From contig JBBRQY010000003.1 of the NCBI GenBank assembly GCA_038225655.1, forward strand, positions 265,323 to 329,322: DNA of 64,000 nucleotides, given 5' to 3'. Shown one piece after another: positions 33,714-52,396 of the stretch; within the stretch, counting starts at the first letter, position 1; each line of letters begins with the position of its first letter. A program made the position numbers and the translations under genes. The DNA comes from Phycisphaerales bacterium. GTDB lineage: Bacteria; Planctomycetota; Phycisphaerae; Phycisphaerales; UBA1924. A model generated the notes under the pieces. The model searched no databases. It was not told where the DNA came from and saw only the letters and a list, made by a program, of their open reading frames with translations.

Positions 33714-33785
33714 GCGGGCGTAGCTCAATGGTAGAGCATCAGTTTTCCAAACTGAATGTTGCGCGTTCGAGTCGCGTCGCCCGCT
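33714..33785 (+). tRNA. trnW: tRNA-Trp (anticodon CCA)
   Basis: GCGGGCG...CGCCCGC acceptor stem, 'TAGCTCAATGGTAGAGC' D-arm, anticodon loop TTCCAAA, 'GTTCGAGTC' T-arm. No encoded CCA. Confidence 0.9.
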
Positions 33786-33787
33786 TT
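33744..33787 (+). repeat. attL (44-bp direct repeat, 3' part of tRNA-Trp)
   Basis: tttccaaactgaatgttgcgcgttcgagtcgcgtcgcccgcttt, identical to 49926-49969. Confidence 0.9.
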
Positions 33788-33894
33788 GGATAAGTTGCCG
33801 GATCGCAAGGATTTGCGAGGCCTCCCGAGTGTTCGGGAGTGCGGCCAAACCAGCGTCCGCCGTGGTTCATACCACGGCGTGCAGGAGCCGCACT

Positions 33895-35178
33895 ATGTCC
33901 GCGCCCACAACTCCATCGCCCCGCCTCCCTCAGATGCTCGTGTACGCCCCCGCCGGCCGCGTCACGAAAGACGGCCAACCCTACCGCCGATTCCGTGTAC
34001 GCGTGAAGGGGCAAGACATTCCTCTGGGTCCGTGGGGTCCGGACGACTCGCCCGAGCATCAGCGAGCCACGATGAAGTACCGCGGCATCTGCGCCGACCT
34101 TCTGCGCCACGGGAAGGTATGCAGCAAGCCGGATGTGCTCACCGTCGGATCGCTCATCGACTTGTACCTCAACGAACTCGCGAGGCGGGACGCGGCGATT
34201 GATCCGCCTGGACGCAGCGAACCGAACGGCCGATCGATTCTCAAGAAACTTCGTGCTGGTTTCGCGCCGGAACGAGCCGCGGACTTTTCCGTGCCCAAAC
34301 TTGTGCATTGGCGCCTCGCCCTCGCCGAGACGGTCGATGATCGCGGAGTCCGGCTCAGCCGCGGCTATCTCAACAGCAAGGTGATCCCGACAATCGTGCG
34401 CATGTTCCGGTGGGCTCAGGACAAAGGACTCATCGAAGGCGAGCGATGGAAGGGCAATCCGAAGGACGTGGTTACGCCGCTCGCGAAGGGCGAGACTTCA
34501 GCGCCGAACCTCGAAGCAAGGGAGATGGCGGAGGGGATTGTCGTCGATCAGGTGCTTCCGCACCTACTCCCCTATGTCCGCGACGTGGTACAACTCATCC
34601 GTTTGACCGGGGCTCGCCCATCGGAAATCTGCCGACTCACCTGTGCGATGATCGACACTTCGCGGGCCGACGTGTGGGTCGTGGATTTGAAGCAGAACAA
34701 GAACGCCCACAGAGGGAAGATGCGAGTGATCACGTTCGACGCATCGGCGCAGGAGATTCTTTGCCGCCACAGGGATCCCCACCGCCCCTATGCCTGCATC
34801 TTCACGGGCGGACGACTCAAAGAGGCCAGCGTTCGAGCGAAACACGCCGGCCGGAACAGCACGCCGACGCCGGCACAGCTTGCGGCGATGGCGAAGGCCA
34901 CTGAGGATCGACTTGCCGACGCCAAACCGCTCGACCCGTCCACCGTTCAGGACCACGTGCGCCTTGCGTGCGTGGAGCACGGAATCGCACCGTGGACGCT
35001 GTACCAGCTCCGACATGCGGCCATCACCGAGGCGGACGACTTGGTAGACGAAGGCGTAGCGCAGGACGTTGCCGGGCATTCCTCCGCGGCGATGACCAAA
35101 AAGTACAAGCACAATCAGATCAACCGGGCCGTGAAGGCACGCCGCGCCGTCACCGCTGCGAAGGCCGCGGCTCACTGA
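33895..35178 (+). CDS. int: tyrosine-type site-specific integrase
   Basis: 'GARPSEICRL', 'LYQLRHAAIT', 'GHSSAAMTKKYKH' (R...H-x-x-R...H...Y). Start placed at ATG 33895. Confidence 0.9.
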   Translation: MSAPTTPSPRLPQMLVYAPAGRVTKDGQPYRRFRVRVKGQDIPLGPWGPDDSPEHQRATMKYRGICADLLRHGKVCSKPDVLTVGSLIDLYLNELARRDAAIDPPGRSEPNGRSILKKLRAGFAPERAADFSVPKLVHWRLALAETVDDRGVRLSRGYLNSKVIPTIVRMFRWAQDKGLIEGERWKGNPKDVVTPLAKGETSAPNLEAREMAEGIVVDQVLPHLLPYVRDVVQLIRLTGARPSEICRLTCAMIDTSRADVWVVDLKQNKNAHRGKMRVITFDASAQEILCRHRDPHRPYACIFTGGRLKEASVRAKHAGRNSTPTPAQLAAMAKATEDRLADAKPLDPSTVQDHVRLACVEHGIAPWTLYQLRHAAITEADDLVDEGVAQDVAGHSSAAMTKKYKHNQINRAVKARRAVTAAKAAAH

Positions 35179-35333
35179 GACGCATTGCAAACCACAACTC
35201 TACACAATATAACATTGCGATTGGCCATCATGGACACTCAAGGACAGTCATTGACAATCACGGCCGAAAATGATGTGTTTTGGTGTGACTTGGTTGGGTT
35301 CGGTGTCGCGGATTGTCGCCATTTGACCCCATC

Positions 35334-35362
35334 TTGACTTATGTCTGGCATAGGGGCACAAT
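35334..35362 (+). promoter_or_regulatory. sigma-70-like promoter candidate TTGACT-17-CACAAT
   Basis: TTGACT at 35334-35339 and CACAAT at 35357-35362, within a visibly AT-richer intergenic stretch. Confidence 0.3.
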
Positions 35363-35402
35363 GGGACGTACTGGCGTCACCCAAAACACAAAGGAACCCA
35401 TT

Positions 35403-35714
35403 ATGCCGCTATCGCCAGCGTCCAAGCCCCCCGCAATCACACTCGAAACCCTCCGCGAAACGCGGCTCACGTTCAAGGCTGCCGCGAAACTCGCGGGCGT
35501 GGATCAGACATCCGTTTGGCGATGGGCCATGACCGGCCTCCGCGGCGTCAAGCTGCCGACCATCCACATCGGCAGGGGGCACTTCGTCACCGAGCCTGCC
35601 CTTCTCGACTTCCTCAACAAGATCAACGACAAGGGGCCCGCCGACGTGTCCCACCTTGTCGAAGCCCGTCAAGAAGCCCGTAAGCCCCGCCGATCGCGAC
35701 GCCGCGCGGCCTGA
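35403..35714 (+). CDS. small HTH DNA-binding protein (DUF1580-like)
   Basis: 'LTFKAAAKLAGVDQTSVWRWAMTGLRGVKLPTIHIGRGHFVTEPALLDFL'. Confidence 0.6.
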   Translation: MPLSPASKPPAITLETLRETRLTFKAAAKLAGVDQTSVWRWAMTGLRGVKLPTIHIGRGHFVTEPALLDFLNKINDKGPADVSHLVEARQEARKPRRSRRRAA

Positions 35715-36224: not shown

Positions 36225-36776
36225 ATGTCCGAGCCACAACGACTTTTCAACGTCCGGCAACTCTCCCGACATCTCAGCGTGTCTCAAAAGTGGCTGCGAC
36301 TAGAGGTGGAGGAGAATCGACTCCCCTGCATTCGCATCCGCAAGAATGAAATGCTGTTCGACGCCGAGACAGTCGAAACGATTCTGGCTGAGCGAGCAAA
36401 GCTCGGCGATGGCCGTGTCGTCACGAACTACTTCACGCCAGCGGTTCCGGCGAGGCACGTTGGAGGCGTGCATCGGAAGGCGATTCAGCTCTTCGGGGAT
36501 CTGCTGGCTGTGACTTGGGATTGCAACCACCCCGCGCGAGCCGAGTCGGTGCGTGCCCTGCTCTCCGAAATCGGGATCGATGTGAACGTCACGATGTCTG
36601 GCGAGCTTTCCCAAAAGACGCTTGAATGGCTCGTTGCTCAGTGCCCCGCGTGGCCGGTCGATGCCCAATGGGCACCACCGTCGAGAACTCCGCGCCCCAC
36701 GCAGGAAGCGATAGACGCGGCCGCTCCCCTCAACGGAAAGGACTCCGATGCCCCGTCGTCCCCAATCGCATATTGA
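36225..36776 (+). CDS. HTH (excisionase/MerR-like) domain protein
   Basis: 'LFNVRQLSRHLSVSQKWLRLEVEENRLPCIRIRKNEMLFDAETVETIL'. Confidence 0.6.
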   Translation: MSEPQRLFNVRQLSRHLSVSQKWLRLEVEENRLPCIRIRKNEMLFDAETVETILAERAKLGDGRVVTNYFTPAVPARHVGGVHRKAIQLFGDLLAVTWDCNHPARAESVRALLSEIGIDVNVTMSGELSQKTLEWLVAQCPAWPVDAQWAPPSRTPRPTQEAIDAAAPLNGKDSDAPSSPIAY

Positions 36777-36999
36777 CCACCACGCCGCGGCCCGATGGCT
36801 GTGCGGCGGACCCGTGCGTGATATGCCGCTCGCGCAGCGGCTCATTCGTCACTTCGTGGCGACCGGCCACTGGCGCGAAGTCAGCCGGGATGGCGTCGTT
36901 GGCTTCGACCTCGCGGACCTGAATGCGTGGCTCGTGTGGTGGCACTCGCCATCGTCGGACCTGGCACAGCCGCCGTTCGCGTCTCGGAGGGCGGCATGA
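36748..36999 (+). CDS. hypothetical small protein
   Basis: ORF track 83 aa. Its TGA overlaps the next gene's ATG (ATGA at 36996-36999). Start uncertain. Confidence 0.4.
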   Translation: MPRRPQSHIDHHAAARWLCGGPVRDMPLAQRLIRHFVATGHWREVSRDGVVGFDLADLNAWLVWWHSPSSDLAQPPFASRRAA

Positions 37000-37916
37000 A
37001 GATCAACATTGCACTGATCCGGACCGATGGCCAGACGCAGCCGCGCGAGCGGTTGGATACGAATGTGGTCAGCGACTACGCCGAGATGCTCGACGCGCTC
37101 CCGCCGGTGACGGTCTTTCGCGAAGGGAACAATTACTGGCTGGCCGACGGCTTCCATCGACACGCCGCGCACGTCAAGGCAAAACTCGAACAGATAAGTG
37201 CCGACGTTCGGAACGGCACTGTTGACGATGCCCGTCTGTTCGCCGCTGGAGCCAATGCCGCCCACGGGCTTCGTCGAACGATCGCGGACAAGCGGCGCGC
37301 CGTGCGGATCGTCCTATGGCACCCGTTGGCCGAAGACTGGTCTGACCGCCAAATTGCGACTCACTGCGGGGTGTCTCACACGTTCGTTGCGCGGTCGCGG
37401 CTTGATCTCAATGGCGCAGTTGTGGCCCGCTCCGACACAAAGCCGAACCCGGAACCCGCGACCCTTCCCACCGATGCCGTGGCCGATCCGAGCTCGGGCC
37501 CGCCGGAGCGTCCAACCGCAAAGACCGAGTTGCCGAAAGGCCTGGACCCCGATGTAGCGATGAAGCTGCTTGCTGCGATCGCGCAGTCGGACGTGCTGCG
37601 ACGGCTCAAACTTGATCTGGACGCGATCGCGCGCCGAGTCGAACAGTGCAGAGAGAACACGGCAGCTCGCCAGTTTCCATTTCAGCAATTTGTGAGACCC
37701 TTCCGCGAGGTGACGCTCTATGTCTGGAACGCGGAGCCGTTCTGCACATGTCCTGAGCCCCACGCGGGCCAACCCGGATGCCGCCTTTGTGCTTCCACGG
37801 GTTGGCTCACTCGCGGCGCGTTCCACAACTCCGCAATTCCGAAAGACCACAAGCAAGCGTGCTGGTTCTTCCGCGACGGCGATTGGTTGACCGCTGAGCA
37901 AGCGGGAGAGCTGTGA
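36996..37916 (+). CDS. ParB-like N-terminal (ParB/Srx nuclease-like) domain protein with C-terminal Cys cluster
   Basis: 'MKINIALIRTDGQTQPRE...VTVFREGNNYWLADGFHRHAAH' is ParB N-terminal domain-like. C-terminus 'CTCPEPHAGQPGCRLCASTGW'. Confidence 0.7.
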   Translation: MKINIALIRTDGQTQPRERLDTNVVSDYAEMLDALPPVTVFREGNNYWLADGFHRHAAHVKAKLEQISADVRNGTVDDARLFAAGANAAHGLRRTIADKRRAVRIVLWHPLAEDWSDRQIATHCGVSHTFVARSRLDLNGAVVARSDTKPNPEPATLPTDAVADPSSGPPERPTAKTELPKGLDPDVAMKLLAAIAQSDVLRRLKLDLDAIARRVEQCRENTAARQFPFQQFVRPFREVTLYVWNAEPFCTCPEPHAGQPGCRLCASTGWLTRGAFHNSAIPKDHKQACWFFRDGDWLTAEQAGEL

Positions 37917-39817: not shown

Positions 39818-39892
39818 TTCCGATAGCAAGGGACCGCCGCGAGTGACGTTACCACTCGGACGGCCCCGCGAAACTGCATCGAAAGGAACTCC

Positions 39893-40123
39893 ATGAACTC
39901 TACCACCCCCAACAGCAGCCCAGCCCGCGAAGCCACATACCTCGCCCTGTTCTGTGCCGCCCTGTCCGGTGCCACCATCGCCGCGGGCCCCGATGCACAT
40001 GCCATCGACGTGGCCACCCGAGCCACTGACCTCGCCGACCTCGCCATGAGCGCCATCGACAAGGCCGGGTGCCCCGGTGTCGAGAAGCCGCAACGCTCCA
40101 GCCGACTCCGAATCGCAGTGTAA
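39893..40123 (+). CDS. hypothetical small protein
   Basis: ORF track 76 aa. AAGGAA-type RBS a few nt upstream of the ATG. Confidence 0.45.
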   Translation: MNSTTPNSSPAREATYLALFCAALSGATIAAGPDAHAIDVATRATDLADLAMSAIDKAGCPGVEKPQRSSRLRIAV

Positions 40124-40223
40124 ACCGGTCCCAAAGCTACTCGAAACTCTTGGAAGACGACCGCCCCTGGCACATGCTGGGGGCGTTGTCGTTCCATGCC
40201 TAGTCTCAGGACAGGCCCATACC

Positions 40224-40307
40224 GACAGAGAGACAGAGACACAGAGAATTTACACGACCCTTCCGTGTATCTCTGTCGCCCAAATCGGTACAAGTCTCTG
40301 TCGCCCA
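40224..40307. repeat. iteron-like repeat cluster
   Basis: Three tandem 8-mers ACAGAGAG/ACAGAGAC/ACAGAGAA (40225-40248). Two copies of CTCTGTCGCCCA (40271-40282, 40296-40307) in the inverse orientation. Confidence 0.7.
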
Positions 40308-40745
40308 TTCCACCCGGCAACGTTGCCACTCCGGCCGGTCCGCCGGCGTCTACGTCGGTGCGCGTGCGCGCTTCTGAAACATTTTGGTCCCACCTCCCCA
40401 CGCCGTTCCCGCCCTCGCCGTGGCACGTTGCCACCCATCGAGAACGCCGCCGGACGCTGTACCACGCACCTACACCACGATGCCCCGCCCTCGCTCGGCG
40501 GGCTTGGACCGTGTTTCAAGGTGGTTTCAACACGCCTTCAACGGCGCACGCTCAGCCAGTTCAGATGACACTCCACCCAACGAGGGGCGAATCGAGTGCC
40601 GCCCGCAGGCCGATGGGGTGGCACGGGGGAGCTGGGCGCGTAGAGATGGGTCGATCGACTCGCGCAGAACTCTGAGAAAAAATCTTCCAAGGGTCCAAAA
40701 CTTCTGAGCCGATACATAGATGGCGGTATATATTTACCGCGATCA

Positions 40746-41405
40746 ATGCAGTCGTCACGGCTGATGCCCGAGGGCAACCCGCGAACGAGTGCGAGGACCG
40801 ACCACGTGCACCACTTGCTTTCTGCTGACCAGCATCGCTTCTTGAGCCGCAACCGCTTGGTGATGCGGCATCGCTCTGTTGCCCCGACCGACGTGAGTGT
40901 CGATGTCCTGGGAAACATGAGCCACTCGCCGGCGCTCATCGAGCTCGACATCATCGACGATCACGATGCAGTGCTGGTCTGCGAGCGCGGCGACAGCGAA
41001 CCCGAGTTGATCGCGAAGCTCTTTTCTGAGGCCAATCGCGTTTTGCCGGTGTTCGCGGAGAGTCGCGCGAACGACCGTGAAGCTGCGATGGCGAAGCAGG
41101 CGAAGGAACATCGCCTGTGGCAGATACTCAACAACATCGTCGATCTTCGGCCGAACGAATCTTGGCCGCCAAACTGGGTCTCCACGCTCGACGATTTCTC
41201 CCGGCCGGGCGGCTTCCCCAACACTGTGGGGTGTCTGGCGCACAAAGAGATTCTTGCCGCCGTCGCGGTGCTTCGGCATTGGGTGTCTCTCCACCGACAG
41301 CTCGTCAATGCTGCTTCGGTCGAGCACGCCGACGTGCCGGCAGAGATCGTCAAGATCGAGGCATCGCTCCCCTGGCTCTTTAGTCTCGCGCGGGAGGCCC
41401 CATGA
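40746..41405 (+). CDS. hypothetical protein (start uncertain, possibly about 40917)
   Basis: ORF track 219 aa. The C-terminal two thirds look protein-like. No motif recognised. Confidence 0.45.
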   Translation: MQSSRLMPEGNPRTSARTDHVHHLLSADQHRFLSRNRLVMRHRSVAPTDVSVDVLGNMSHSPALIELDIIDDHDAVLVCERGDSEPELIAKLFSEANRVLPVFAESRANDREAAMAKQAKEHRLWQILNNIVDLRPNESWPPNWVSTLDDFSRPGGFPNTVGCLAHKEILAAVAVLRHWVSLHRQLVNAASVEHADVPAEIVKIEASLPWLFSLAREAP

Positions 41406-41427
41406 CTCATATTGGAGCTAAAGCATC

Positions 41428-41799
41428 ATGAGCGACACAGCCACCGCAAAAGTACCAGAAGGTTCGATTCCCGACGAACTCGCCACGCGGTCCGCCCTGC
41501 GGATCGTCGGCGGCCAGGACCAACTCGACGCCCTCAAACGCGACGCGGCGACGTTCATCCCGCCCGCTGAACTCGCCCAATACAACGAGTGGTTGAAAAA
41601 TCCGAACACGCGGGCCGACACCGTGAAGTTGCTGATGCAGGAGCGTGACAATCACGCCCGCGTCAAGGCCGTTGAAGCACCCACGAACGTCCGCGACTAC
41701 AAGACGCTCGAACGCCGCGCCATGAACGGCGACGCCAAGGCCCAGCAACTCATCGCCAACCTCGACGTGTCCACCATCACCGTCCACCCAAGCCGCTGA
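41428..41799 (+). CDS. hypothetical protein
   Basis: ORF track 123 aa, with a GGAG-like RBS upstream (attggagc). Confidence 0.55.
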   Translation: MSDTATAKVPEGSIPDELATRSALRIVGGQDQLDALKRDAATFIPPAELAQYNEWLKNPNTRADTVKLLMQERDNHARVKAVEAPTNVRDYKTLERRAMNGDAKAQQLIANLDVSTITVHPSR

Positions 41800-41808
41800 G
41801 AACCCCCC

Positions 41809-42384
41809 ATGTCCGTCGTTCGCTCCATCGTCGCAGATGCTCAACATCAAGCCCGTGTCGCACTTCTTGTCCGCACACGCGAGATCATCGCGTGCCTTTG
41901 TCGCGTGGCCCGCCTGAGTGCGGACCAGAAACCGGCTGCACAAGACGCCACGATGCTCGGCGAACTTATGCGGCCGGGCGCGTTGCCCGAGGATCTGCAA
42001 TATGTTCACGTGCAGGGAGCCCCCAATCCGAGCAAGCAGCGGAACTGCTGGACCGCCGAAGAACTGGAGGCGATCGTTGATCAGTTGTCGAACTGCGTGG
42101 GCAAACTCAATGACTTGGAGGCCGCCGAAGCGAAGCTGAAAGCCGGCGGCGACCTTGCCGCCGCCGATGCCGCGTACCGGGCCGTCGGCGATCGCAACCG
42201 TCCACTCATCAAGAAACTTAAGGACGAGATCAAGAAGCTGGAGGAGGAAATCAGTGTCGCCGGAGAAGACGGCAGCTATATCAGGAGACTTCAGGAAGAC
42301 GTGGAGAAGGTGAAGAAACTTCCGCGGCAGTCGTTGGAGCTGAACGCCCAGTATTTCGCCGAAGCGTTGGGAGTGCCGGAGTAG
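41809..42384 (+). CDS. hypothetical coiled-coil protein
   Basis: ORF track 191 aa. 'LKDEIKKLEEEISVAGEDGSYIRRLQEDVEKVKKL'. Confidence 0.55.
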   Translation: MSVVRSIVADAQHQARVALLVRTREIIACLCRVARLSADQKPAAQDATMLGELMRPGALPEDLQYVHVQGAPNPSKQRNCWTAEELEAIVDQLSNCVGKLNDLEAAEAKLKAGGDLAAADAAYRAVGDRNRPLIKKLKDEIKKLEEEISVAGEDGSYIRRLQEDVEKVKKLPRQSLELNAQYFAEALGVPE

Positions 42385-42397
42385 GAACCGATTGCGA

Positions 42398-42814
42398 ATG
42401 ACCGAAGCACCGCCACAGACCAGTTCCCAGGTGCCGCCAGCGCCAGCCCGCAAGGTGTCCGTGCCGCTCGGTCAGCGAGAACTACTGCGAGCGAGTGAAG
42501 TGATGGCGATTTTCGGGTGGAAGCGTTCGAAGTTCTACGAGCACCTTCGCGAGTACAGGATTCCGCAGCCCGTCGAAGTGGGAGAAACGAAATTCTGGCG
42601 AAGACGCGAGCTTGCGGATTGGGTGGACGCAGGAGCACCGAACGTCGGCATGCGGGGTGACCATTGGAAGTGGGAGCCGGGCGTTCGGATGAAGCTCTCG
42701 ATCGTGCATGCGCAAATGGCCAGGCAACTCTCCGAGATGCGCACCGAGTGGAACCTGTTGGATGAACTGCTGAAAAAGGGCGATCGGATCATCAACCTAC
42801 GGAGCACCCAATGA
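42398..42814 (+). CDS. AlpA/excisionase-like HTH protein
   Basis: 'LLRASEVMAIFGWKRSKFYEHLREYRIPQPVEVGETKFWRRRELADWV'. Confidence 0.6.
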   Translation: MTEAPPQTSSQVPPAPARKVSVPLGQRELLRASEVMAIFGWKRSKFYEHLREYRIPQPVEVGETKFWRRRELADWVDAGAPNVGMRGDHWKWEPGVRMKLSIVHAQMARQLSEMRTEWNLLDELLKKGDRIINLRSTQ

Positions 42815-43056
42815 ACACCTACACCCCCGACCATCTCGTCCTCATCGCCGCGGCCGATCGCCGTCGCGTCCGGTGCTCGCCCGATCGTTTCCGTGACATG
42901 CTCTCCATCATCCACACGCCGCGCAGGATCGGATTCGGAGACACACTCAGGCGCGTTAACGGCACTGCGCGGTATGTCTTCACGCCGCTCACGATCGCCA
43001 TCGCCCTCGCCTTCACTCACCACGCGCCGCGGCGTCGGAATTCTCAACATGTCTGA
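42811..43056 (+). CDS. hypothetical small protein
   Basis: ORF track 81 aa. ATGA overlap upstream, and an 8-nt overlap with the next gene. Confidence 0.4.
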   Translation: MNTYTPDHLVLIAAADRRRVRCSPDRFRDMLSIIHTPRRIGFGDTLRRVNGTARYVFTPLTIAIALAFTHHAPRRRNSQHV

Positions 43057-45301
43057 CGACTATTCCGCCCTCGAAAATGGCTCGCCCAACGGGCCGCGCC
43101 GCATCCCACGCATCGGCTCCACGCCAAACCTCCCGCAGAACGTCGGGCCGACGAGTCTCGAACTGCCTTTTACCCCAGCCTATCCCTCCAATGGCGAGCG
43201 GATGGCGGATCAGTTGAGCCAGGCACTTGGACTCGCGGGGCAGGCCGGTAACGAACTCAATCACATCGCCCGCCAGCAACTGGAGCGCGACGCCGCCTTT
43301 GTCACGCGGAACGCCACCGAGCAACGGCATATGGATGAGTTGCGGAAGGGTGCAGGTGCCAACGCGTTTGCCATCGATCATCCTCAGGTCGCGTCCGATT
43401 TTGCCAACGGCAAACTTCCCGTTCCCATCGATGATCCGACCGACACCGTGAAGACCCTCGTCGAGGGGAGGATTCAGAAGTTGGAGTTGGACTCGGTAGC
43501 GGCGGACGAATTTCGCCGGCACGCCTACCCCGCCTACACCGGTCTCGCCGTCGCCGCCCGCGACAAGAATCGCGAGACCGCGAAGGCAGATTCATTCTCC
43601 CTGTTCGGCGACCGCGCCGTGCAGGCATCATCGGCGGACGAACTCGCTGCACTCTCGGCCAAGGCGAAGGAGATGTTTCCTTCCGCCACCGCCGATGAAA
43701 TCGCCGTCGCGATCCCCCTTCGTGCGATGGCAGACGCCGCGCACGTGGGCGACCCGGAGAAGTTTGCTGCCGCTCAGCAGGAACTCGGCACACGATTCGG
43801 TGACAAACAAGACATTGCCAAAGTGCTCCTCAACGACTCCGTTCGACGCAACCAATCGGCCGTGGACATGCAGTTTGAGGATGCCGTGTCGTCGAAGTAC
43901 GGCCAGCCCGCCGCCATCATCCGGCAGACCATCAACAGTTGGCAGGGCAAGGCCAGCCCTGAACGCATCCGCACCGAACTCCGGTCGGTCGATTCCGAGG
44001 AACGTGCTGCAAACGCCAAGGCGTACAGCGAGGCCAAGGCCATAGATCTGGAAAACCAGAAGGCCGATTTGGTCGCGAGCACGATCGAACTGATGCGAAG
44101 CGCCCGCGCCACTGGGGGCGCATCGCAGATTCCCGATCGCGTGCCGATCCAAGACCTCGACGGAGCCACGCATTACGTCCCTCGATCCGAAATGGTCGGA
44201 CCGGCCACGGATGCGGAGATGTTCCGGCTTGCGAAGATGCCGCCCGAACGCGCACTACCCGCACAGGTGGAGTTTTTGTCGAACAACGGGGAAACCTACG
44301 ACGGATGGAAACGAGTGATGGAAGCGGGGCCGATGGTGAGCAGCATCGACATCGACAAGGCCGGCCCGAAGGACATCCCCTCGAATCTGAGCAAGGGCTA
44401 CGCGTTGTACAAGAGCATCGGGGCCATCAATCCCCGCACACGCGACCGGCACATTCCCGACGCCTCCACGGGCCGATTTTACGAATTGGCAGAGCTCGCC
44501 GAGAAATACGTCACGCCGGGCGATCCCAACGCCGCACTGCTGTATGCAATGCGAGCCGCCAAGCGAGAGCCGTTCGGCGACAACCCCGCGCTGCAGGTGC
44601 GATCACAGCTCATCAATGACGAGATTGATCGCCGCGCGAGCAGCGGCTTGCTGTGGTGGAAGCAAACCGTCAACAACCCCAACGAAGTTGGAGCCGAGAC
44701 CGCTCGCGTCGCGGACCTCTATGTTCACTCGCTGGGCATTAGCCCCCAGTTGGCCGTCGATGAAGCTTCCAAACGCATCGACGCCAACTGGACCGTCGTA
44801 AACGATTGGGCGGTGCCAACCCGCGGACGCAACGTCCCCAGCGTGCTCCCCGCGGCCGCGAAGGTCATCGCCGACGAATACGCGAGGGTGCATGGAGCCG
44901 ACGAGGGGCTCACCGCCCGCGACCTGGTACTCCAGCCCGCCGACGTGCCGGGCTTGTGGGTGCTGACGAACAAGGCCACGCTCTCGCCCGTGAAATACTG
45001 GGCGACCGAAGGCCGCTTTACCGACTCCGACTTCGGCAAGCTACTCACCGACCTGCAGCGCGGCAAGGAAGATGCCGCCGCCGCGGAGGTTTCCCACGGG
45101 ATGAATCTGCCCGGCGCGTTCAAGAACGATCGCGACATGTTCAATGAGGCCGTGCGTTCTCGCATCACCGGTGATCCCATGCTGGCCGACCTACTGCCCG
45201 CCCCGCGCGTCGATCCCAAGCCCACACCGAAGCCGGTGCCTCGACCAGCTCCCTCTTCCTTCATGCCTGACATCCCCGGATCCGCACTCTCTCTCCCCTG
45301 A
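43049..45301 (+). CDS. large ORFan protein (750 aa)
   Basis: Start at ATG 43049 (MSDDYSALENGS...). Long alpha-helical-looking sequence with a Pro-rich C-terminus. No motif recognised. Confidence 0.75.
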   Translation: MSDDYSALENGSPNGPRRIPRIGSTPNLPQNVGPTSLELPFTPAYPSNGERMADQLSQALGLAGQAGNELNHIARQQLERDAAFVTRNATEQRHMDELRKGAGANAFAIDHPQVASDFANGKLPVPIDDPTDTVKTLVEGRIQKLELDSVAADEFRRHAYPAYTGLAVAARDKNRETAKADSFSLFGDRAVQASSADELAALSAKAKEMFPSATADEIAVAIPLRAMADAAHVGDPEKFAAAQQELGTRFGDKQDIAKVLLNDSVRRNQSAVDMQFEDAVSSKYGQPAAIIRQTINSWQGKASPERIRTELRSVDSEERAANAKAYSEAKAIDLENQKADLVASTIELMRSARATGGASQIPDRVPIQDLDGATHYVPRSEMVGPATDAEMFRLAKMPPERALPAQVEFLSNNGETYDGWKRVMEAGPMVSSIDIDKAGPKDIPSNLSKGYALYKSIGAINPRTRDRHIPDASTGRFYELAELAEKYVTPGDPNAALLYAMRAAKREPFGDNPALQVRSQLINDEIDRRASSGLLWWKQTVNNPNEVGAETARVADLYVHSLGISPQLAVDEASKRIDANWTVVNDWAVPTRGRNVPSVLPAAAKVIADEYARVHGADEGLTARDLVLQPADVPGLWVLTNKATLSPVKYWATEGRFTDSDFGKLLTDLQRGKEDAAAAEVSHGMNLPGAFKNDRDMFNEAVRSRITGDPMLADLLPAPRVDPKPTPKPVPRPAPSSFMPDIPGSALSLP

Positions 45302-45307
45302 CCGCCC

Positions 45308-48300
45308 ATGCCTGACATCGCCGACCTTGTACCCTCGACCGACTTTGCGCCACCCGCTTCCTCGCCATCGTCCGCGCCGGTTCCGCCACCCGGACTGTGG
45401 CAGATCGGCAAGGATGCCGCGTCCTCGGAGTGGGTGTCATCGTGGGCCATCCGGCAGTTTGATCGCGCGGCCTACACCTACGACCCGTACTTCTCGCTGG
45501 ATGCCGACAAGGTGAAGTCGCTCGGCGATGGGCTCCCGGTGGAGTATTGGTCGAGATTCGGCGAAGCACAGAGTGACACAGAAGCGCAGGCCATCCGCCG
45601 GCAACTGCTGGACGTGTACGGTGCTCGCCAGCGGCTCGGACAAGCAGGGTGGACCGGCCGGGCGGCTCAGATCGGTGCGAGCATCATCGACCCCGCCGCG
45701 ATCGCCGTGACGCTCGGCACGGCCGGGCTCGGCGGGGAGGTTGCGTACGGGGGCAAGGCCGCCCGTCTGGGGATGTTGCTCCGTTCCGGTCTCGCCGTGG
45801 GTGGAGTCAATGCCGGATTGGAGGGATACCGCGCTACACAGGATCCAGAAGTAGGGACCGCCCAGGTACTCGGCGCAGGACTTGGCGGGTTCGGGTTCGG
45901 CGTCGGCTCCGCTGCGACTCGCGGGCTGGGCCGTGGTGCTCGCGTGCTGGGTGCAGGGCTGGGGCAAAGCATCCCGACCATGGCCGTTGACACCATCGAC
46001 GCCCTGACGGACGATCAGAAGACCGCCCGCGACGTGGTGTACGCCGGGGCGTTCTCGTTTGCGATGGGTGGTATCCTCAACGGGCTCCATCGCACCGACC
46101 CTGGCGAGCGCGACGCGGCCATCCGGGCTCGCAAGGCCATCGAACTCGAGGACGTGAAGACTTCCGGGGCGACAGTGACCCCGAAGGGCGAGGCTTACTT
46201 TCGCGACGTGAGTCCCGACGCCGAGGCCCAGACCGTCGCCCGGCTCACGGACAAGACTGAAGCCGCCCCAGGTGCCGTGGTGTCTCCGCTACCCGCCGAG
46301 GCCACTGCGCGACCGCTCACTGAACTTGAACGCATCGACGCCGAAGTCTCTGCCACGCTCAAGGGCCAACAACCCAAGGTACGGGCTGAAGCGTTCGCCC
46401 GCGAGATCATCACGTCGGGCTGGTTCGACCCGGCAACCCAGAAGGCCACGCTACGCGAGGAACTCGTAAACCGCTTCGGCGTTGGCGCCGGGGTGGCCGA
46501 CCGGATGATCACACGCATCAGCCCCGAGGCCCCCCCCACCCCCACCGCCGCCGGCGAGAAGCTCCGACAGCCCGCCCTATCCCTCGCCGAGCATGCTGAA
46601 CTTGATCGTCGCCTCGCCGAAGTGCCCACCGCGCCCGCCGATGACACCGGCATGCGAATCGGTGGGAACAAACTGGGCCAGGGCGTGCGTCCTGCCATTG
46701 CTGATCAGATTGCCGCCGACGCCGCGCCGGTTTTTGGCGAACGGCTCCAGATTCCCACCGGTGCCGTCCCCGAGTCTCTGCGCCCATCAACCCCGGGCGA
46801 GAAACTGCACCTCCCGGCCATGCTCAATGCCGAAGAGGCCGCCGCCCGCCGCTACGACTACTCAGAACTCGGTGGCCAGTCCGTCACGTTCTCCGACGCC
46901 TTCGCCCTGGCCAAGGCCCTCAACGAAGCCACGCCTGGCCGCGACTACGCCGTCGTGGAGACCGGCGACGGCTTCACCGTGGCGAGCCGCAAGGTGTCCG
47001 AACCCGTCGCCCCCAAGGGCAGGCCCCGCGACGTGGCGACGTATGTGCCGCCAGAGCCGATGAAGATGCCCAAGCTCGTGCGGGCGACTCCGGCCGAGAT
47101 CGCTCTCCGCTCCGAAATGCTGCGAACCGCCGTGCCGACGATGGACCGGGCCGACGCCGTGGACATCGCCGGGCGGGAGATCGCCCGCGAGCGTGCACAG
47201 CAAGTCGTCGAGCAGCTCCACCCTGCCCCTCGCGATCCCGACTCACCTGGTCCCCAGTTTGCCATCGGGGCCGCGTCTCAGTCCGCGATGGAGGCCGGGC
47301 TGTACGAACAGGCCACCCAGCGGGGCGAAAAACTCCCCGGCGACTTGAACCTCTCGAACACCACCGACGCGGGGGCGTACAACCCAAGCGTCGTGGGCGT
47401 CAATGTTCGCCAGAGCATTGCGGGGCTCAACGGGGTCAGCGAGTCCGGGGCCGTTCGCCGCCTCACTGCGATGCTCGTGGAAGACCCCACCGCCAAGGCC
47501 GACAACTCCCCCAGCCGCCAGTCTGCGAGCGAGTGGGGCCGCCTCAAGTTTGAGACAGATGTCAACCGCTTCCTCCGCTCGCACTTTGACGACTTCGTGG
47601 ACTGGGCGAACCGCAACGGCAAGCCCGTGTCGATGCTCCGCCCTTTCGCCCGTGCCAAGGCGTTTGCTGAGTTTTCCGAGATGGTGGGCCGGGCTGTGCG
47701 CCGCGAAGAGGGCGCATTCAGCGACGATCCCGCCGTCAACCGTGCCGCGAATAATGTCCGCGACGGTCTCGACAAACTCTGGATGCTCCAGAATCGGTAT
47801 CAGGTGCCCGGCTTCGACCAGGTGACGCCGGCGCACAACTACTTGACCAGAATCTGGAACCTCACGAAGCTGAACGCCCTGACCGAACGATTCGGGGCCG
47901 CCACCATCGAGAAGCTCGTCGCCCAGGCCATCGAGAACCGCACGCCGAATGTCGGCACGGAGCGGGCGACAATCTTCGCCAAGGGGATGCTCCGCACGAT
48001 TCGCGAGGCCAAGATGGGGTCGGAACTCGACCGGGGCCGCATCCTCGAGTTGCCCGACGTTGAAGTGCTCCGCAAGGCCATCCGCGACGCCGTGCCGGGC
48101 ATCAGCGATGCCACCGTCAATGACGTGCTCTATCACGTCGCCCCCGGCGAGGGCGACAACCTCCCGCCCCGGGCCCGCCGCCGCGTCATTCTAGACGAGA
48201 CCGCCAGCATCAACGCCATCGACCAGCGCACCGGCCAGCCCGCCCAACTGTCGATTGAAGACTTGCTGGAGAACAACGCCGCGAAGGTGTACGCCCGGTA

Positions 48301-49765
48301 CAGCCGTGATGCCTACGGCCGCTCCGCCGTCGCCGAAGTCATCCGGGCGAGCCGCACGAGCGACACCGACCCGCTCGACTCCGTGCAGGCCCTTCTCGAC
48401 CGGACCAGCCGCCAGGCGATGAGCGACTACGGCGTCACAAACCGCGATGCTGCAAAGAGTGTGGATGCCCAAATCGCTCGCCTCGAAGTCGCTTTCAAGT
48501 CCGTGCTTGGCCATCGACTTGGGGGGGACAGCCGACTTGCCGAAGGCGCTCGGTTGCTTCGCGCCTTCAACTACATGGCCGTCGGCGGTCGCGTCGGGCT
48601 CCACCACGCCCAGGACCTCGCCAGTGCCGTCGGGGAGGCGGGATTCGGCACCGTGCTCCGCTCCATCCCCTCTCTCGCCCGGCTCATCGCGTCGGCCGTG
48701 TCGGGCGAGATGAAGGATGAGACGATCCGCGAAGTCGAAGCCCTGTGGGCCGCGGGCACCGATCACTTCCGGGGCTCCATAGGGCACTACCTCGACCACG
48801 ACAGCCGTGTTCACTTCATGGGCGAGACCGCCGACGAGATGATCCGCGCCGGCGCCCGCACGATGAACGTCGTGAACTTCCTCGCACCCGTCGCCTCGTT
48901 CAACCAGCGGGCCGCCGCCATCTTCGCCGAACAGAAATGGCTCGACATTGCCAGGGCACGCAAGTCCATGAGCGTGGGCCGCCTCGCCGACATGGGGCTT
49001 ACTGTCCGCGAGGCCGACGACATCTCCGAGCAGATGCGACAGCACGCGACCACGCAGGCGGGGTTGTTCGGCCGCAAGATCGTCGCTGCCAACGTGAACC
49101 TCTGGGACGCTGACACCGCCGCCCGGTACATCGGGGCCGTGGATCGGTGGAGCCGCTCGGCCGTCGTTCGTGGGGACATCGGGCAACAGGCCAAATGGAT
49201 GACCAGCGACGCGGGCCAAATTTTGAGCCAGTTTCGGAACTTCACCATCGCCGCGCACGAGAAGAACCTCGTCCGCAACGGCCGCCGAATGGACGCCACC
49301 ACATTCAACAACTGGGCGATGACCACGCTCGCCGGTGCCATGGCCTACACCGTCAACGAGTACGTCAACTCTCTCGGCCGCAAGGATGCCGATAAGTACC
49401 GCCGCGAGAAACTCGACACGAAGGAAATCGCGAAGGCCGCATTTCAGCGCTCGTCCTGGTCGGCGTTCCTTCCCACCGCCATTGACACCGTGGCCACCGA
49501 CATCGGATACGACCCGCTGTTCGCGGGCGGACGATTCTCTGGGCTCTCGACCAACCTCGTCACCGGCAATCCGTCGTATTCGACGCTCGACTCGCTGTAT
49601 CACGCGCCGCACGCCCTCACCGCCCCGATGCACCGAGACTACCGCTTCTCACAGACCGATTTCCGCGTGCTCCGCAACCTGATCCCGTATCAGAACGCGT
49701 TCGGGATCAAGAACCTGCTGGACAGATTCGCCGAGGACTTGCCGCGGCGATCGAAGAACAATTGA
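45308..49765 (+). CDS. giant ORFan protein (1485 aa) with glycine-zipper hydrophobic region
   Basis: Starts 6 nt after the previous stop. Residues about 125-260 include 'IGASIIDPAAIAVTLGTAGLGG', 'AQVLGAGLGGFGFGVGSAA' and 'VVYAGAFSFAMGGILNGL'. Confidence 0.8.
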   Translation: MPDIADLVPSTDFAPPASSPSSAPVPPPGLWQIGKDAASSEWVSSWAIRQFDRAAYTYDPYFSLDADKVKSLGDGLPVEYWSRFGEAQSDTEAQAIRRQLLDVYGARQRLGQAGWTGRAAQIGASIIDPAAIAVTLGTAGLGGEVAYGGKAARLGMLLRSGLAVGGVNAGLEGYRATQDPEVGTAQVLGAGLGGFGFGVGSAATRGLGRGARVLGAGLGQSIPTMAVDTIDALTDDQKTARDVVYAGAFSFAMGGILNGLHRTDPGERDAAIRARKAIELEDVKTSGATVTPKGEAYFRDVSPDAEAQTVARLTDKTEAAPGAVVSPLPAEATARPLTELERIDAEVSATLKGQQPKVRAEAFAREIITSGWFDPATQKATLREELVNRFGVGAGVADRMITRISPEAPPTPTAAGEKLRQPALSLAEHAELDRRLAEVPTAPADDTGMRIGGNKLGQGVRPAIADQIAADAAPVFGERLQIPTGAVPESLRPSTPGEKLHLPAMLNAEEAAARRYDYSELGGQSVTFSDAFALAKALNEATPGRDYAVVETGDGFTVASRKVSEPVAPKGRPRDVATYVPPEPMKMPKLVRATPAEIALRSEMLRTAVPTMDRADAVDIAGREIARERAQQVVEQLHPAPRDPDSPGPQFAIGAASQSAMEAGLYEQATQRGEKLPGDLNLSNTTDAGAYNPSVVGVNVRQSIAGLNGVSESGAVRRLTAMLVEDPTAKADNSPSRQSASEWGRLKFETDVNRFLRSHFDDFVDWANRNGKPVSMLRPFARAKAFAEFSEMVGRAVRREEGAFSDDPAVNRAANNVRDGLDKLWMLQNRYQVPGFDQVTPAHNYLTRIWNLTKLNALTERFGAATIEKLVAQAIENRTPNVGTERATIFAKGMLRTIREAKMGSELDRGRILELPDVEVLRKAIRDAVPGISDATVNDVLYHVAPGEGDNLPPRARRRVILDETASINAIDQRTGQPAQLSIEDLLENNAAKVYARYSRDAYGRSAVAEVIRASRTSDTDPLDSVQALLDRTSRQAMSDYGVTNRDAAKSVDAQIARLEVAFKSVLGHRLGGDSRLAEGARLLRAFNYMAVGGRVGLHHAQDLASAVGEAGFGTVLRSIPSLARLIASAVSGEMKDETIREVEALWAAGTDHFRGSIGHYLDHDSRVHFMGETADEMIRAGARTMNVVNFLAPVASFNQRAAAIFAEQKWLDIARARKSMSVGRLADMGLTVREADDISEQMRQHATTQAGLFGRKIVAANVNLWDADTAARYIGAVDRWSRSAVVRGDIGQQAKWMTSDAGQILSQFRNFTIAAHEKNLVRNGRRMDATTFNNWAMTTLAGAMAYTVNEYVNSLGRKDADKYRREKLDTKEIAKAAFQRSSWSAFLPTAIDTVATDIGYDPLFAGGRFSGLSTNLVTGNPSYSTLDSLYHAPHALTAPMHRDYRFSQTDFRVLRNLIPYQNAFGIKNLLDRFAEDLPRRSKNN

Positions 49766-49925
49766 CGGCGTTCATCGCTGGTTCCGCACGTCTTGCCTCG
49801 TGGTATTCGTACCACAAGCCAACGCAATCACGTGAGATTTGCCTCGTTTTTGCACAGACTTGCACCAAGTGGCGATTAGTGCTATTCTTGCTGTGAATCC
49901 GCTGTTTTTGGCATCGGCACCCGTC

Positions 49926-49969
49926 TTTCCAAACTGAATGTTGCGCGTTCGAGTCGCGTCGCCCGCTTT
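49926..49969 (+). repeat. attR (44-bp direct repeat, tRNA-Trp 3' fragment)
   Basis: Identical to 33744-33787. Confidence 0.9.
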
Positions 49970-50020
49970 TCCTGTTCATTGGCACCCCACGCCGCACCAT
50001 CGAATCCACGGAGATTCCCC

Positions 50021-50560
50021 ATGAACGCCGCTACACGCACTGTTCTTTCCATGACGGCCTGCATCGCCCTCGGATTCTCCGCCGCCGTCATGCTCGGCTT
50101 CGGCGGTGCGCCCGGCGCAGAGCCCCACGAAGGCCAGCCCGTGTCTCTCGACGCCATTCCCGCCGCCGTCAAAGCCGCCGTCGAGGCACACGCGCCCGGC
50201 GCCACCCACGAGAAGGCCTGGAAGGTCGTTGAGAACGACACGACTTTCTACTCCCTCCGCGGCAAGGCGAAGGACGGCGACAAGGTCGAGTTCAAGGCCC
50301 TCGAAAGCGGGCGCCTCGTCGAAGTCATCCACGACATGACCCCCGACAAAGTCCCCGCCGACGTCGCCGATCAGATTAAGAAACTTCTCCCCACCGCCAC
50401 AATCACCGGTGGCGAACGCCACATGGGCATCCGCTGGCGCATCGAAGTGAAGGACGGCAGCAAGATGAAGGAAGTCATCCTCCGCGCCGACGGCAAGCAC
50501 GTTATCCGCGACGCCGAAGCCCCCGCCAAGCCCCTTGACGCCAAGCCGCCTACGAAGTAA
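50021..50560 (+). CDS. secreted hypothetical protein (PepSY-like repeats?)
   Basis: Signal peptide 'MNAATRTVLSMTACIALGFSAAVMLG'. Two 'K...E.....G....V' beta-hairpin-like modules. Confidence 0.55.
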   Translation: MNAATRTVLSMTACIALGFSAAVMLGFGGAPGAEPHEGQPVSLDAIPAAVKAAVEAHAPGATHEKAWKVVENDTTFYSLRGKAKDGDKVEFKALESGRLVEVIHDMTPDKVPADVADQIKKLLPTATITGGERHMGIRWRIEVKDGSKMKEVILRADGKHVIRDAEAPAKPLDAKPPTK

Positions 50561-50721
50561 TCATCGAGCCCTTCGCACGAACTTTGTACCCGTTTTCATC
50601 CCGATTCATGGGGTGGATTCGGGTGTTTCATGGCACATGTAAAAAGTTCGCTTGACACAACGCCCCACACAGGCGATTGTATAGCTGGGCGTGCATCTCG
50701 TGGCTCGCCGGGAGACCTCCC

Positions 50722-52257
50722 ATGAAACCGATCGCCGTGTCAAAAGTCGCCCTCTCCCACGCTGTCCCAGTGCTCAGCGTGCTTACTCTTTGCGCCGCCG
50801 CCGGCAGCGTACTCGCCCAAGCAACTCTGCAAACCGTCGGCGCTGCGGGCGCACAGGCCTCCGCCGTCAGCGGTGACGGATCCACCATTGTCGGCTACGC
50901 GCTCTCCGGATCCAACACCCGCCCCACCCGCTGGCTCGCGGCGACTCCCTCCATCGGCACCGACCTCGGCACCCTCAGCCCCGACGCATTGGGGAATGCC
51001 CACGCCGTCAGCGCCGATGGTTCGATCATCGTCGGCGAGAGCGGCGTCAGTTGGCTCGGCCCGCGTGCCTTCCGCCGCACCGACGCCGAAGGCATGATCC
51101 AGCTCACCGGAACCTTCTCCGCCCAGACCCTCGGCATCAGCCGCGATGGTGTCGTCTCTGTGGGAGCCCGCGGCAACCACGGCGCGATCTGGACTGGCTC
51201 CGGCCCCACCGGCACGCTCCAGGAGTTCAACGCTCAATCCGGCTACGACCTCGCCATCGCCCTGGGCATCTCCGACGACTACTCGACCGTCGTCGGCTAC
51301 AGCACCCTTTCCGGCGGTGACGGCTTCTCCCGCGCCTTCCTCTGGCACAGCAATACCGGCCTGCAGCCCCTTTCCTATCTCCCCTCCACAACTACTTCCT
51401 ACGCCCATGCCATCTCCGCCGACGGTTCCATCATCATCGGCTTTAGCGGCGTCTCCGATTTCGAGGGGGGCCAGGGCAACGCCGTCCGATGGACGAGCGG
51501 CGGCGCAGTTGTGCAATCCCTCGGCCACCTCTCCGGCACAATCGGCGCCTCCGCCAACGCCCTCTCCGCGAACGGTTCCATCATCGTGGGCCAGAGCTAC
51601 ACCGCCAGTTGGCGCACCGGCGGCAGCGCGTTTATCTGGACCGCACAAACCGGCATGATCAGTCTCGCCGCCTATCTCCAATCCATCGGCGTGACTCCCG
51701 CCATCGGGCTTACCTCCGCGACTGGCATCAGCGACGACGGCCGCGTCATTGTCGGCACCGGCACCGCAAGCCCGACCAGCGGTTCCGCCATCAGTTGGGT
51801 CGCCAAGATCCCCGCCCCCGGCTCCTTCTCCCTCTCCTCCCCCGACGACAACACCCTCGCCCTGCCCCTCCAGCCGACCCTCTCCTGGACCCCTTCCGCG
51901 GCCGCCGCCTCCTACTCCGTCACCATCACCCCCCAAGCCGGCGCGCCGACAACTCTTACGACCCCCAGCACGAGCATCCAGCTCCCCCCCGGCACTCTCC
52001 AATCCTGCCAAACCTACACCTGGTCCGTCCAGGCCAGCAACATCGTTGCCTCCACCACCGCCTCCTCCGCCCCGCGCTCTTTCCAAACCCTCCGCCCGGG
52101 CGATTTCAACCACGACGGCGCAGTCAGCGTCCCCGACATCTTCGCCTTCCTCACCGCGTGGTTCGCCAGCGACCCCGCCGCCGACATCAACGGCAACGGC
52201 CTCGGAGTTTCAGACATCTTCGACTTCCTAGCAGCCTGGTTCGCCGGCTGCCCTTGA
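50722..52257 (+). CDS. HAF-repeat extracellular protein with C-terminal twin dockerin-like repeats
   Basis: Signal peptide, then repeated 'A.A.S.DGS.IVG.S' units (AHAVSADGSIIVGES, AHAISADGSIIIGFS, ANALSANGSIIVGQS, ATGISDDGRVIVGTG). C-terminus 'GDFNHDGAVSVPDIFAFLTAWFASDPAADINGNGLGVSDIFDFLAAWFAGCP'. Confidence 0.8.
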   Translation: MKPIAVSKVALSHAVPVLSVLTLCAAAGSVLAQATLQTVGAAGAQASAVSGDGSTIVGYALSGSNTRPTRWLAATPSIGTDLGTLSPDALGNAHAVSADGSIIVGESGVSWLGPRAFRRTDAEGMIQLTGTFSAQTLGISRDGVVSVGARGNHGAIWTGSGPTGTLQEFNAQSGYDLAIALGISDDYSTVVGYSTLSGGDGFSRAFLWHSNTGLQPLSYLPSTTTSYAHAISADGSIIIGFSGVSDFEGGQGNAVRWTSGGAVVQSLGHLSGTIGASANALSANGSIIVGQSYTASWRTGGSAFIWTAQTGMISLAAYLQSIGVTPAIGLTSATGISDDGRVIVGTGTASPTSGSAISWVAKIPAPGSFSLSSPDDNTLALPLQPTLSWTPSAAAASYSVTITPQAGAPTTLTTPSTSIQLPPGTLQSCQTYTWSVQASNIVASTTASSAPRSFQTLRPGDFNHDGAVSVPDIFAFLTAWFASDPAADINGNGLGVSDIFDFLAAWFAGCP

Positions 52258-52396
52258 GCACCTGCAGGTTCCCTCTGAAGTCCGAACTTTCAGATTGCCG
52301 CTGCCTTCTCCGCCCCTGCGTATCACCCGTCGCGCGCTCCGCGGCCGACCTTGGCTGTTCGTCTTGGCCATGTGCCACGGAGCGACGTGCTCGGTG

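Follow-up and report, generated by a model that had tools for sequence, protein, structure and literature searches.

In bacteriophage T7, gp16 unfolds for ejection, controls DNA entry, and gates transcription-coupled entry. The protein is stored on the portal inside the capsid before it is ejected, and it combines an N-terminal tape, insertion into the inner membrane, and a cytoplasmic DNA-handling domain; its partner gp15 forms the periplasmic tube of the trans-envelope DNA conduit (PMC8954989). Here we describe a pair of genes related to this machinery that lies outside any recognizable virion module, in a 16,182-bp tRNA-integrated element of a Phycisphaerales bacterium. The element is contained in a 64,000-nt stretch of DNA (contig JBBRQY010000003.1 of assembly GCA_038225655.1, positions 265,323 to 329,322 of the forward strand), hereafter the window, to which all coordinates given without a locus name refer. 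The final gene of a long operon in this element encodes a 1485-aa protein that is, with near certainty, a homologue of gp16, and the gene directly upstream encodes a 750-aa homologue of the proteins that occupy the gp15 position in T7-like modules. Taken alone, the two proteins are unremarkable though divergent representatives of podovirus ejection-protein families, and the new point is their location: as far as we know, an integrative mini-element with ejectosome genes as its sole structural genes has not been described.

The second group of described systems with which the locus can be compared consists of phage satellites. AlpA is a hallmark regulator of Gram-negative phage-inducible chromosomal islands (PICIs) and of P4-like satellites. 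We know of no described satellite family that carries ejection-protein genes or uses a T7-like helper. Literature searches on satellites, helper phages, and islands with ejection or internal virion proteins returned nothing comparable.

A gp16-type ejection protein

The 1485-aa protein and its subdivisions are as follows.

45308..49765, + strand: gp16-type internal virion / ejection protein homologue, 1485 aa (PHROG, PDB profile, hhalign)
45401..45652, + strand: conserved N-terminal segment, aa 32-115 (phage alignments, conserved columns)
45653..46090, + strand: Gly/Ala-rich, weakly hydrophobic "glycine-zipper" segments, aa 116-261 (hydropathy, alignments)
46091..47377, + strand: variable Pro/Ala-rich spacer, poorly conserved, aa 262-690 (alignments; no Pfam domain)
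47378..49762, + strand: conserved gp16 C-terminal core, aa 691-1485 (aligns to T7 gp16 523-1280)

The open reading frame (ORF) starts with ATG and has a third-position GC content (GC3) of 0.81, a coding signature in sequence of 64% GC. Almost its entire length (aa 13-1483) matches phrog_342 at E=7.5e-119, a family named "internal virion protein with endolysin domain"; the match covers positions 208-1230 of the 1235 in that profile. A tblastn search returned 345 phage records at 21-27% identity, all of them T7-like podoviruses (of Pelagibacter, Rhizobium, Klebsiella, Pseudomonas, and others); these records are of Autographiviridae type, and the matched genes bear the annotation internal virion protein or DNA ejectosome component. 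When residues 286-1485 were searched exhaustively with HMMER, 1953 representative clusters scored E<=1e-3. Structure-linked comparisons gave the same answer: a three-sequence profile matched the T7 gp16 chains in PDB entries 7EYB (7eyb_I), 7K5C, and 6YT5 at E=3e-5, and hhalign placed a 23-sequence profile on T7 gp16 523-1280 with Prob 99.3% and E=1e-20 over 678 columns.

Other searches recovered little of this. Neither giant protein contains a Pfam domain, and phmmer against PDB sequences gave nothing useful for either. Word-indexed homologue searches with both proteins and with the three-sequence profile returned only the query itself and one weak match. Scans of genome contigs for related loci found none, as did single-protein scans of viral and metagenome contigs; a profile scan of metagenome and viral contigs did find relatives, at 23-29% identity only. 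An earlier inspection of the DNA, the sequence-only reading, had regarded both proteins as ORFans. That description no longer holds for the larger protein, given its 1953 clusters of relatives, or for the smaller, homologues of which occur in at least 11 of the loci fetched.

According to the published map of T7 gp16, the transglycosylase occupies residues 1-156, the gp15-binding "tape" residues 157-228, and the transmembrane region TMH I residues 243-410 (PMC8954989). The N-terminal lytic domain was not found in the 1485-aa protein: the PHROG match leaves out profile positions 1-207, and Pfam gives no SLT domain. The hydrolase domain is likewise missing from several phage-borne relatives (P0005, P0016, and P0020 among them), which begin directly with the conserved segment, and homologues in P22 and Sf6 also do without it (PMC8954989). 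The conserved segment at aa 32-115 aligns to the homologue of Rhizobium phage TRX32-1 from aa 224 (224-283 onward) and to the "pesticin domain protein" of pelagiphage Bylgja from aa 340; in the TRX32-1 and pelagiphage homologues, this segment and the glycine-rich region come after an extra N-terminal domain. Read against the T7 map, aa 32-115 would be the counterpart of the gp15-binding tape, aa 116-261 are a candidate counterpart of TMH I, and the protein as a whole appears to resemble gp16 minus its hydrolase domain.

The segments rich in Gly and Ala span approximately aa 122-148, 158-172, 182-203, and 243-261, and include the glycine-rich strings GAGLGGFGFGVGSAA (aa 189-203) and AFSFAMGGILNGL (aa 248-260). 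The sequence-only reading had singled out hydrophobic segments of glycine-zipper type in this part of the protein. They are present, and the segments of aa 116-261 are kept in the phage homologues; their hydropathy is weak, however, with a Kyte-Doolittle 19-residue maximum of 1.39, and classical transmembrane helices are not demonstrated. As that reading had also noted, neither giant protein has an N-terminus that resembles a signal peptide on inspection of the sequence.

The gp15-position partner

The two ORFs, of 750 and 1485 aa, are separated by 6 nt, and the second ends at 49765, 160 nt before the right attachment site, as had been described from the sequence.

43049..45301, + strand: gp15-position internal virion protein homologue, 750 aa, with a predicted role as periplasmic tunnel subunit (BLASTP/tblastn to syntenic proteins)

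A mechanical ORF call would begin at a GTG at 42893 (802 aa); the public gene call uses the ATG at 43049. GC3 is 0.75. By itself the 750-aa protein has no Pfam, PHROG, or PDB match. Its relatives were identified through pairwise comparison with proteins from related loci: an 815-aa protein in locus L042 (BLASTP E=5e-47), a 716-aa protein in L046 (tblastn E=4.5e-50 over aa 36-691), an 846-aa protein in L047 (E=8e-13), and the 674-aa protein of Rhizobium phage TRX32-1 (E=2e-10). In both L042 and L046, the matching gene is flanked by a Pfam T7_gp14 gene on one side and a gp16 homologue on the other. By these alignments the 750-aa protein is clearly a homologue of the gp15-position proteins of T7-like modules, and its designation as "gp15" rests on synteny, size, and composition rather than on fold comparison. 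A Kyte-Doolittle scan found no hydrophobic window of 1.0 or more. A single-sequence AF2 model is almost all helix by DSSP, but its pLDDT of 42 is too poor for a fold search. PHROG and Pfam scans of six members of the gp15-position family gave no link to T7 gp15.

The sequence-only reading had compared the pair with T7 gp15 and gp16 by size and architecture, expressly disclaiming homology. The size likeness stands; the disclaimer does not, as homology to gp16 is real and that to gp15 is backed by synteny. Its suggestion that the proteins act in ejection or membrane penetration gains support from both results.

Element boundaries, integration site, and composition

The element is bounded by perfect 44-nt direct repeats (repeat search, 100% identity, spacing 16182) and is integrated in a tRNA-Gly gene, the only Rfam family matched in the island.

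33714..33785, + strand: tRNA-Gly(tcc), integration target (ARAGORN; Rfam tRNA, 71.8 bits)
33744..33787, no strand: attL, 44-nt perfect direct repeat over the 3' part of the tRNA (repeat search)
33829..35178, + strand: tyrosine integrase (Pfam Phage_integrase E=6.5e-13; phrog_1 E=4.7e-22)
49926..49969, no strand: attR, second copy of the 44-nt repeat (repeat search)

GC skew is near 0 within the element (34000-50000) and unusually strongly negative in both flanks, at -0.2 to -0.3, with a range of -0.13 to -0.34 over 1-33700 and 50000-64000. This contrast suggests that the element is a recent arrival whose GC skew has not drifted to that of the host; the identity of the att copies over 44 nt points the same way. 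A contig of Logan dataset SRR19962015 (L001, 16,198 bp) corresponds to window positions 33758-49955 and ends exactly 30 nt into each att copy. These breakpoints are uninformative on excision, because a break in a k=31 graph is expected at a 44-nt repeat. Outside the element, flank proteins carry Gly-rich RNA-binding and dockerin-like C-terminal repeats, which, with the sub-threshold DUF1580 match of 35313-35714, would fit a host from Planctomycetota.

Other genes of the element

Between the integrase and the operon that ends in the giant pair, the following features were recognized.

35313..35714, + strand: small helix-turn-helix (HTH) protein (weak DUF1580 / HTH_17 matches, all under Pfam cut-offs)
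36225..36776, + strand: HTH protein (weak excisionase/regulator-type match)
36927..37916, + strand: ParB-like protein (phrog_1033 E=9.1e-15)
39522-39740 (- strand) and 39893-40123 (+ strand): putative immunity switch of divergent small HTH genes (operator-like palindromes, promoter-like site)

The ParB-like protein is 45% identical to the product of the gene that ends a temperate T7-like phage contig, L050 (15828-16271; tblastn E=1e-33), which ties the early region of the island to temperate T7-like phages. Between the divergent HTH genes, two copies of AGCACGTGCG[A/G]TATT with the palindromic core GCACGTGC lie at 39753 and 39801, together with a promoter-like TTGACA-16-TATTCT at 39790-39817; a strong terminator-like hairpin follows at 40162-40185. 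The region 39522-40190 is thus a probable repressor/cro-type immunity switch. Downstream of it, TCTCTGTCGCCCA occurs twice (40270 and 40295), with inverted partners at 40223-40248, inside about 0.6 kb without a convincing ORF; these repeats could be iterons or operators. Altogether, about 1.4 kb (39300-40700) lacks a convincing ORF.

The operon itself is tightly packed and runs from about 40746 to 49765, with the 1485-aa gene last. Its genes upstream of the giant pair are listed below.

40746..41405, + strand: first operon gene (GC3 0.76; no family match)
41428..41799, + strand: 123-aa protein, conserved in L041 (BLASTP E=1e-10 to L041:1398-1835)
41809..42384, + strand: 191-aa protein, conserved in L041 (BLASTP E=4e-7 to L041:2098-2649)
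42392..42814, + strand: AlpA-like HTH regulator/excisionase, 140 aa (phrog_66 E=3.9e-7; weak precomputed Pfam Phage_AlpA match)
42811..43056, + strand: 81-aa ORF overlapping both neighbours, as in translational coupling (ORF analysis)

The AlpA-like gene therefore stands two genes upstream of the giant pair. Two assignments were tried for the small genes and rejected. The 123-aa protein had a scaffold-like match suggestive of a capsid-size factor (phrog_1018 E~1e-3), for which hhalign gave a Prob of 0.2%. The 191-aa, 140-aa, and 81-aa genes were considered as gp13/gp14; the 140-aa protein is AlpA-like, and the other two are without a match.

Immediately upstream of the operon, a non-coding block of about 100 nt (window 40648-40745) is conserved with L041 648-745, although the proteins of the two loci are only 30-52% identical. 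The block contains AAAAATCTTC...CTGAG...ATAC..GTATA and may be a regulatory or packaging site. The idea that it is a repeated phage-promoter-like motif was discarded, as it occurs in a single copy in the window and has no match in the phage loci.

PHROG and Pfam scans of the other ORFs found no portal, capsid, scaffold, tube, nozzle, gp13/gp14, fibre, terminase, polymerase, or lysis family in the element. None of the components expected of a complete T7-like prophage (RNA polymerase, DNA polymerase/primase, portal, capsid, tail tube/nozzle, terminase) is present in its 16.2 kb.

Relatives and a recurring reduced layout

The loci that encode relatives of the 1485-aa protein are of two types. 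About 20 fetched loci (19, plus L053) are of phage type and have the order portal-capsid-tube-nozzle-gp14-gp15-gp16-(small protein)-terminase, some with an integrase further on. They include the loci of proteins P0005 (40% identity; L042), P0016 (L046), P0008 (L050), P0040 (L053), and P0002 (L004), and 14 others, comprising phage records L002 and L003 and metagenomic or viral contigs. In the temperate relatives L050 and L008, gp15-gp16-TerS-TerL are followed by an integrase. Always between gp16 and the large terminase of the phage-type relatives is a member of an 83-121-aa family with a conserved acidic C-terminus (..DD.AT.), of which five members were recorded.

L042, 12012-12269: 83-121-aa family member
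L050, 6365-6643: 83-121-aa family member
L046, 9223-9531: 83-121-aa family member
L049, 4474-4839: 83-121-aa family member
L053, 11338-11589: 83-121-aa family member

This family is presumably the gp18-type small terminase; it has no PHROG match and no homologue in the other type of locus.

The second, island type is defined by an AlpA-like gene before the core genes, with no nozzle gene upstream and no terminase gene downstream. Four loci are of this type: the window element and three from metagenomic contig sets (L041, L047/L048, and L051). The AlpA-like signature WRRxELxDWxxAGxP..WKWxP is common to all four, the homologues of the window's AlpA-like protein scoring 6e-13 in L041, 1e-12 in L047, and 1e-11 in L051; the AlpA-like protein was found in none of the fetched phage-type loci. 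In L041 (P0004, 1684 aa, 52% identity), three small genes syntenic and homologous with those of the window operon precede the AlpA-like gene and the giant gene, and a transposase gene, a tRNA gene, and yajQ, all of host type, lie downstream. L047 and L048 (P0009, 1107 aa, 36% identity) come from two different samples. Their gene order is TerS-like, AlpA-like, a second HTH gene, an 84-aa gene, an 846-aa gp15-like gene, and the 1107-aa gp16-like gene, followed by a 54-aa gene, two minus-strand genes, an HTH gene, an integrase gene abutting tRNA-Thr, and host genes; Logan contig L048 ends inside tRNA-Thr. The TerS-like match in L047 is weak (phrog_891 4.3e-5), and the gene has a homologue in L041. 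L051 (P0010) carries an AlpA-like gene, a GNAT-like gene, T7_gp14, a 697-aa gene, and a 1131-aa gene. The giant ORFs of 4.5, 5.1, 3.3, and 3.4 kb are intact in the four divergent elements and align to their final residues. Two integration sites are represented, tRNA-Gly in the window and tRNA-Thr in L047, and the integrases of these two elements do not match each other.

Some further features of these relatives were recorded. The non-coding left end of L047 (221-432) contains two pairs of imperfect direct repeats (43 nt at 81% and 30 nt at 83% identity), and two independent assemblies of the L047/L048 element break within 73 nt of each other at this end; the region may be an origin or packaging region, or an att end. 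The variable spacer of the giant L041 protein (P0004, encoded at 3537-8591) has a GNAT-like segment inserted at aa 710-792, which scores 20.6 bits with Pfam Acetyltransf_1 (cut-off 20.7), and in L051 a separate GNAT-like gene (1215-1631) lies between the AlpA-like gene and gp14. The segment and the gene may encode an ejected enzymatic passenger.

Neighbour joining on the conserved C-terminal core pairs the window protein with P0004 as sisters, and likewise the island-borne P0009 with the phage-borne P0005. P0009 is 59% identical to P0005 versus 35-36% to the window protein. Because P0009 groups with a phage-borne protein, the island-borne gp16 genes are polyphyletic and interleaved with phage genes.

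Possible origins and roles of the pair

The reading that we favor, by somewhat better than even chances, is that the giant genes encode the two large proteins that a T7-type podovirus keeps in its internal core and uses to eject DNA, in an element that is a satellite-like derivative of temperate T7-like phages. The satellite step taken by itself falls a little short of even. The element looks much more like a satellite than a prophage because its att sites and integrase are intact, it has a switch and an AlpA-type activator in a long coupled operon, and the core proteins are its sole virion genes; the ParB-like gene that it has in common with L050 would be a trace of temperate T7-like phage ancestry. 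In its broader form the proposal is a tentative one: the window element, L041, L047/L048, and L051 may represent an undescribed satellite family that parasitizes T7-like podoviruses, with an AlpA-controlled gp14/gp15/gp16 module as its sole structural genes, with capsid, tail, and packaging motor taken from the helper, and with the core genes repeatedly exchanged with helpers.

Under the satellite proposal, the element would be induced during growth of a T7-like helper, and its DNA would be packaged in a capsid built by that helper. It would load its own gp15 and gp16 into the core, such that the resulting particles would deliver DNA via a self-made ejectosome. The element could profit by matching DNA entry to its own genome, given that gp16 of T7 gates transcription-coupled entry, by escaping defences that block entry, or by interfering with the helper. 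Direct evidence covers the homology, the order of the genes, the limits of the element, and the reappearance of its reduced layout in other loci; from these we infer present mobility, dependence on a helper, packaging, and the benefit of a private ejectosome.

Several observations weigh against this interpretation. We know of no helper phage for the element. The rest of the 64-kb window yielded no T7-like hallmark, and nothing in the element was recognized as a small terminase, a pac/cos site, a primase/replicase, or a gene for redirecting capsid size. No similarity between the 750-aa protein and T7 gp15 could be detected: hhalign gave a Prob of 0.65% for an 11-sequence profile, and a PDB profile search found no gp15. 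This is nevertheless expected, because gp15 groups share only 7-9% identity, with homologues ranging from 431 to 982 aa (PMC8954989). L041 is without a gp15-like gene, so the pair is not universal among the island-type loci. Only for the window is the absence of capsid genes strictly proven, since the contigs of L041 and L051 are short and the L047 element is not bounded on its left. Lastly, the polyphyly of the island-borne gp16 genes fits exchange with helpers and equally fits repeated independent reduction of prophages.

The last of these points leads to the rival that survives best, though we regard it as unlikely: the element may be the inert remnant of a temperate T7-like prophage after internal deletions, with gp15 and gp16 left over and intact by chance. 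Integrase-bearing temperate T7-like phages (L050 and L008) are among the closest relatives, the ParB-like gene common to L050 and the approximately 1.4 kb without a convincing ORF (39300-40700) are both compatible with decay, polyphyletic island-borne gp16 genes would fit independent decay, and the short contigs keep this explanation alive. It would, however, need at least two deletions (one from the RNA polymerase through the nozzle/gp14, the other of the tail fibre and terminase) that spared both att sites and the integrase. Identity of the att copies over 44 nt and the undrifted GC skew point instead to recent arrival, and four intact ORFs of 3.3-5.1 kb in divergent elements are not easily explained as remnants. 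Chance survival also fits poorly with the AlpA-like gene, which lies upstream in all four loci and is missing from the fetched phage loci, and with the position of the window and L047 elements at different tRNAs with unrelated integrases.

A role in the resident cell is improbable. On this explanation the pair would act in the host envelope, for example as dominant-negative or decoy ejectosome subunits against superinfecting T7-like phages. Genes at the att-distal end of prophages and satellites are often accessory or defence cargo; ejection proteins are known both as targets and as determinants in exclusion systems (e.g., P22 SieA, HXS); and gp16-type proteins have membrane-active regions (PMC8954989). 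Against such a role, no PADLOC defence family matched any of 10 island proteins, and the pair is translationally coupled to and co-oriented with the long operon that contains the AlpA-like gene, so that it resembles a late induced operon rather than a lysogenic moron. Its 6.7 kb make up 41% of the element, a costly investment for exclusion. We know of no precedent, and literature searches found none.

The notion of lineage-specific ORFan effectors or adhesins that recall gp15 and gp16 in size only, which the lack of Pfam domains and the lack of close relatives in word-indexed searches had seemed to favor, is refuted by overwhelming profile and pairwise homology to gp16-type proteins and by the homology of the partner to syntenic gp15-position proteins; the earlier suggestion of an effector function is left without support.

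The pair constitutes the sole virion-related genes of a small and apparently recently integrated tRNA element, a point that the sequence-only reading had not raised, and this layout recurs in unrelated samples. If the elements are satellites, they would be the first known to us with T7-like helpers, as well as the first to contribute the DNA-delivery machine to the particle instead of acting on the size of the capsid or the specificity of packaging. Helper and parasite would in that case conflict, or specialize, at the ejectosome, and the elements would offer a natural system in which the function of gp15 and gp16 is separated genetically from the remaining virion. If they are remnants, they would reveal which parts of T7-like prophages survive longest.

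Comparison with known systems

The gp16 of T7 (internal virion protein D) is homologous to the window protein over its C-terminal approximately 800 residues. In both cases the gene closes the internal-core set, is its largest member, and directly follows the gp15-position gene. The window protein differs in being without the lytic transglycosylase, in its longer variable spacer, and in being encoded outside any virion module. The 750-aa protein is in the same size class as T7 gp15, the 747-aa internal virion protein C, and takes the same position, between the slot of gp14 and gp16. Proteins of gp15 type are alpha-helical and free of transmembrane helices, and the 750-aa protein agrees in having no hydrophobic segment and, in its low-confidence model, mostly helix.

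Among temperate phages, Rhizobium phage vB_RleA_TRX32-1 / Paadamvirus and the phages of L050 and L008 have the same gp15-gp16 pair, tRNA-type integration, and a tyrosine integrase. These Autographiviridae-type phages differ from the window element in their size of 35-45 kb and in having portal, capsid, tube, nozzle, gp13/gp14, tail fibre, and terminase genes.

In comparison with Gram-negative PICIs and P4-like satellites, the window element differs in that no pri-rep/alpha primase, sid/psu/delta, cpm/ppi/rpp, or clear TerS was found in it. It is like them in its size (12-16 kb), its integration at a tRNA 3' end, its adjacent integrase, and its repressor-type switch; they too are without capsid, tail, and lysis genes, and they too have an AlpA-like regulator before the late operon.

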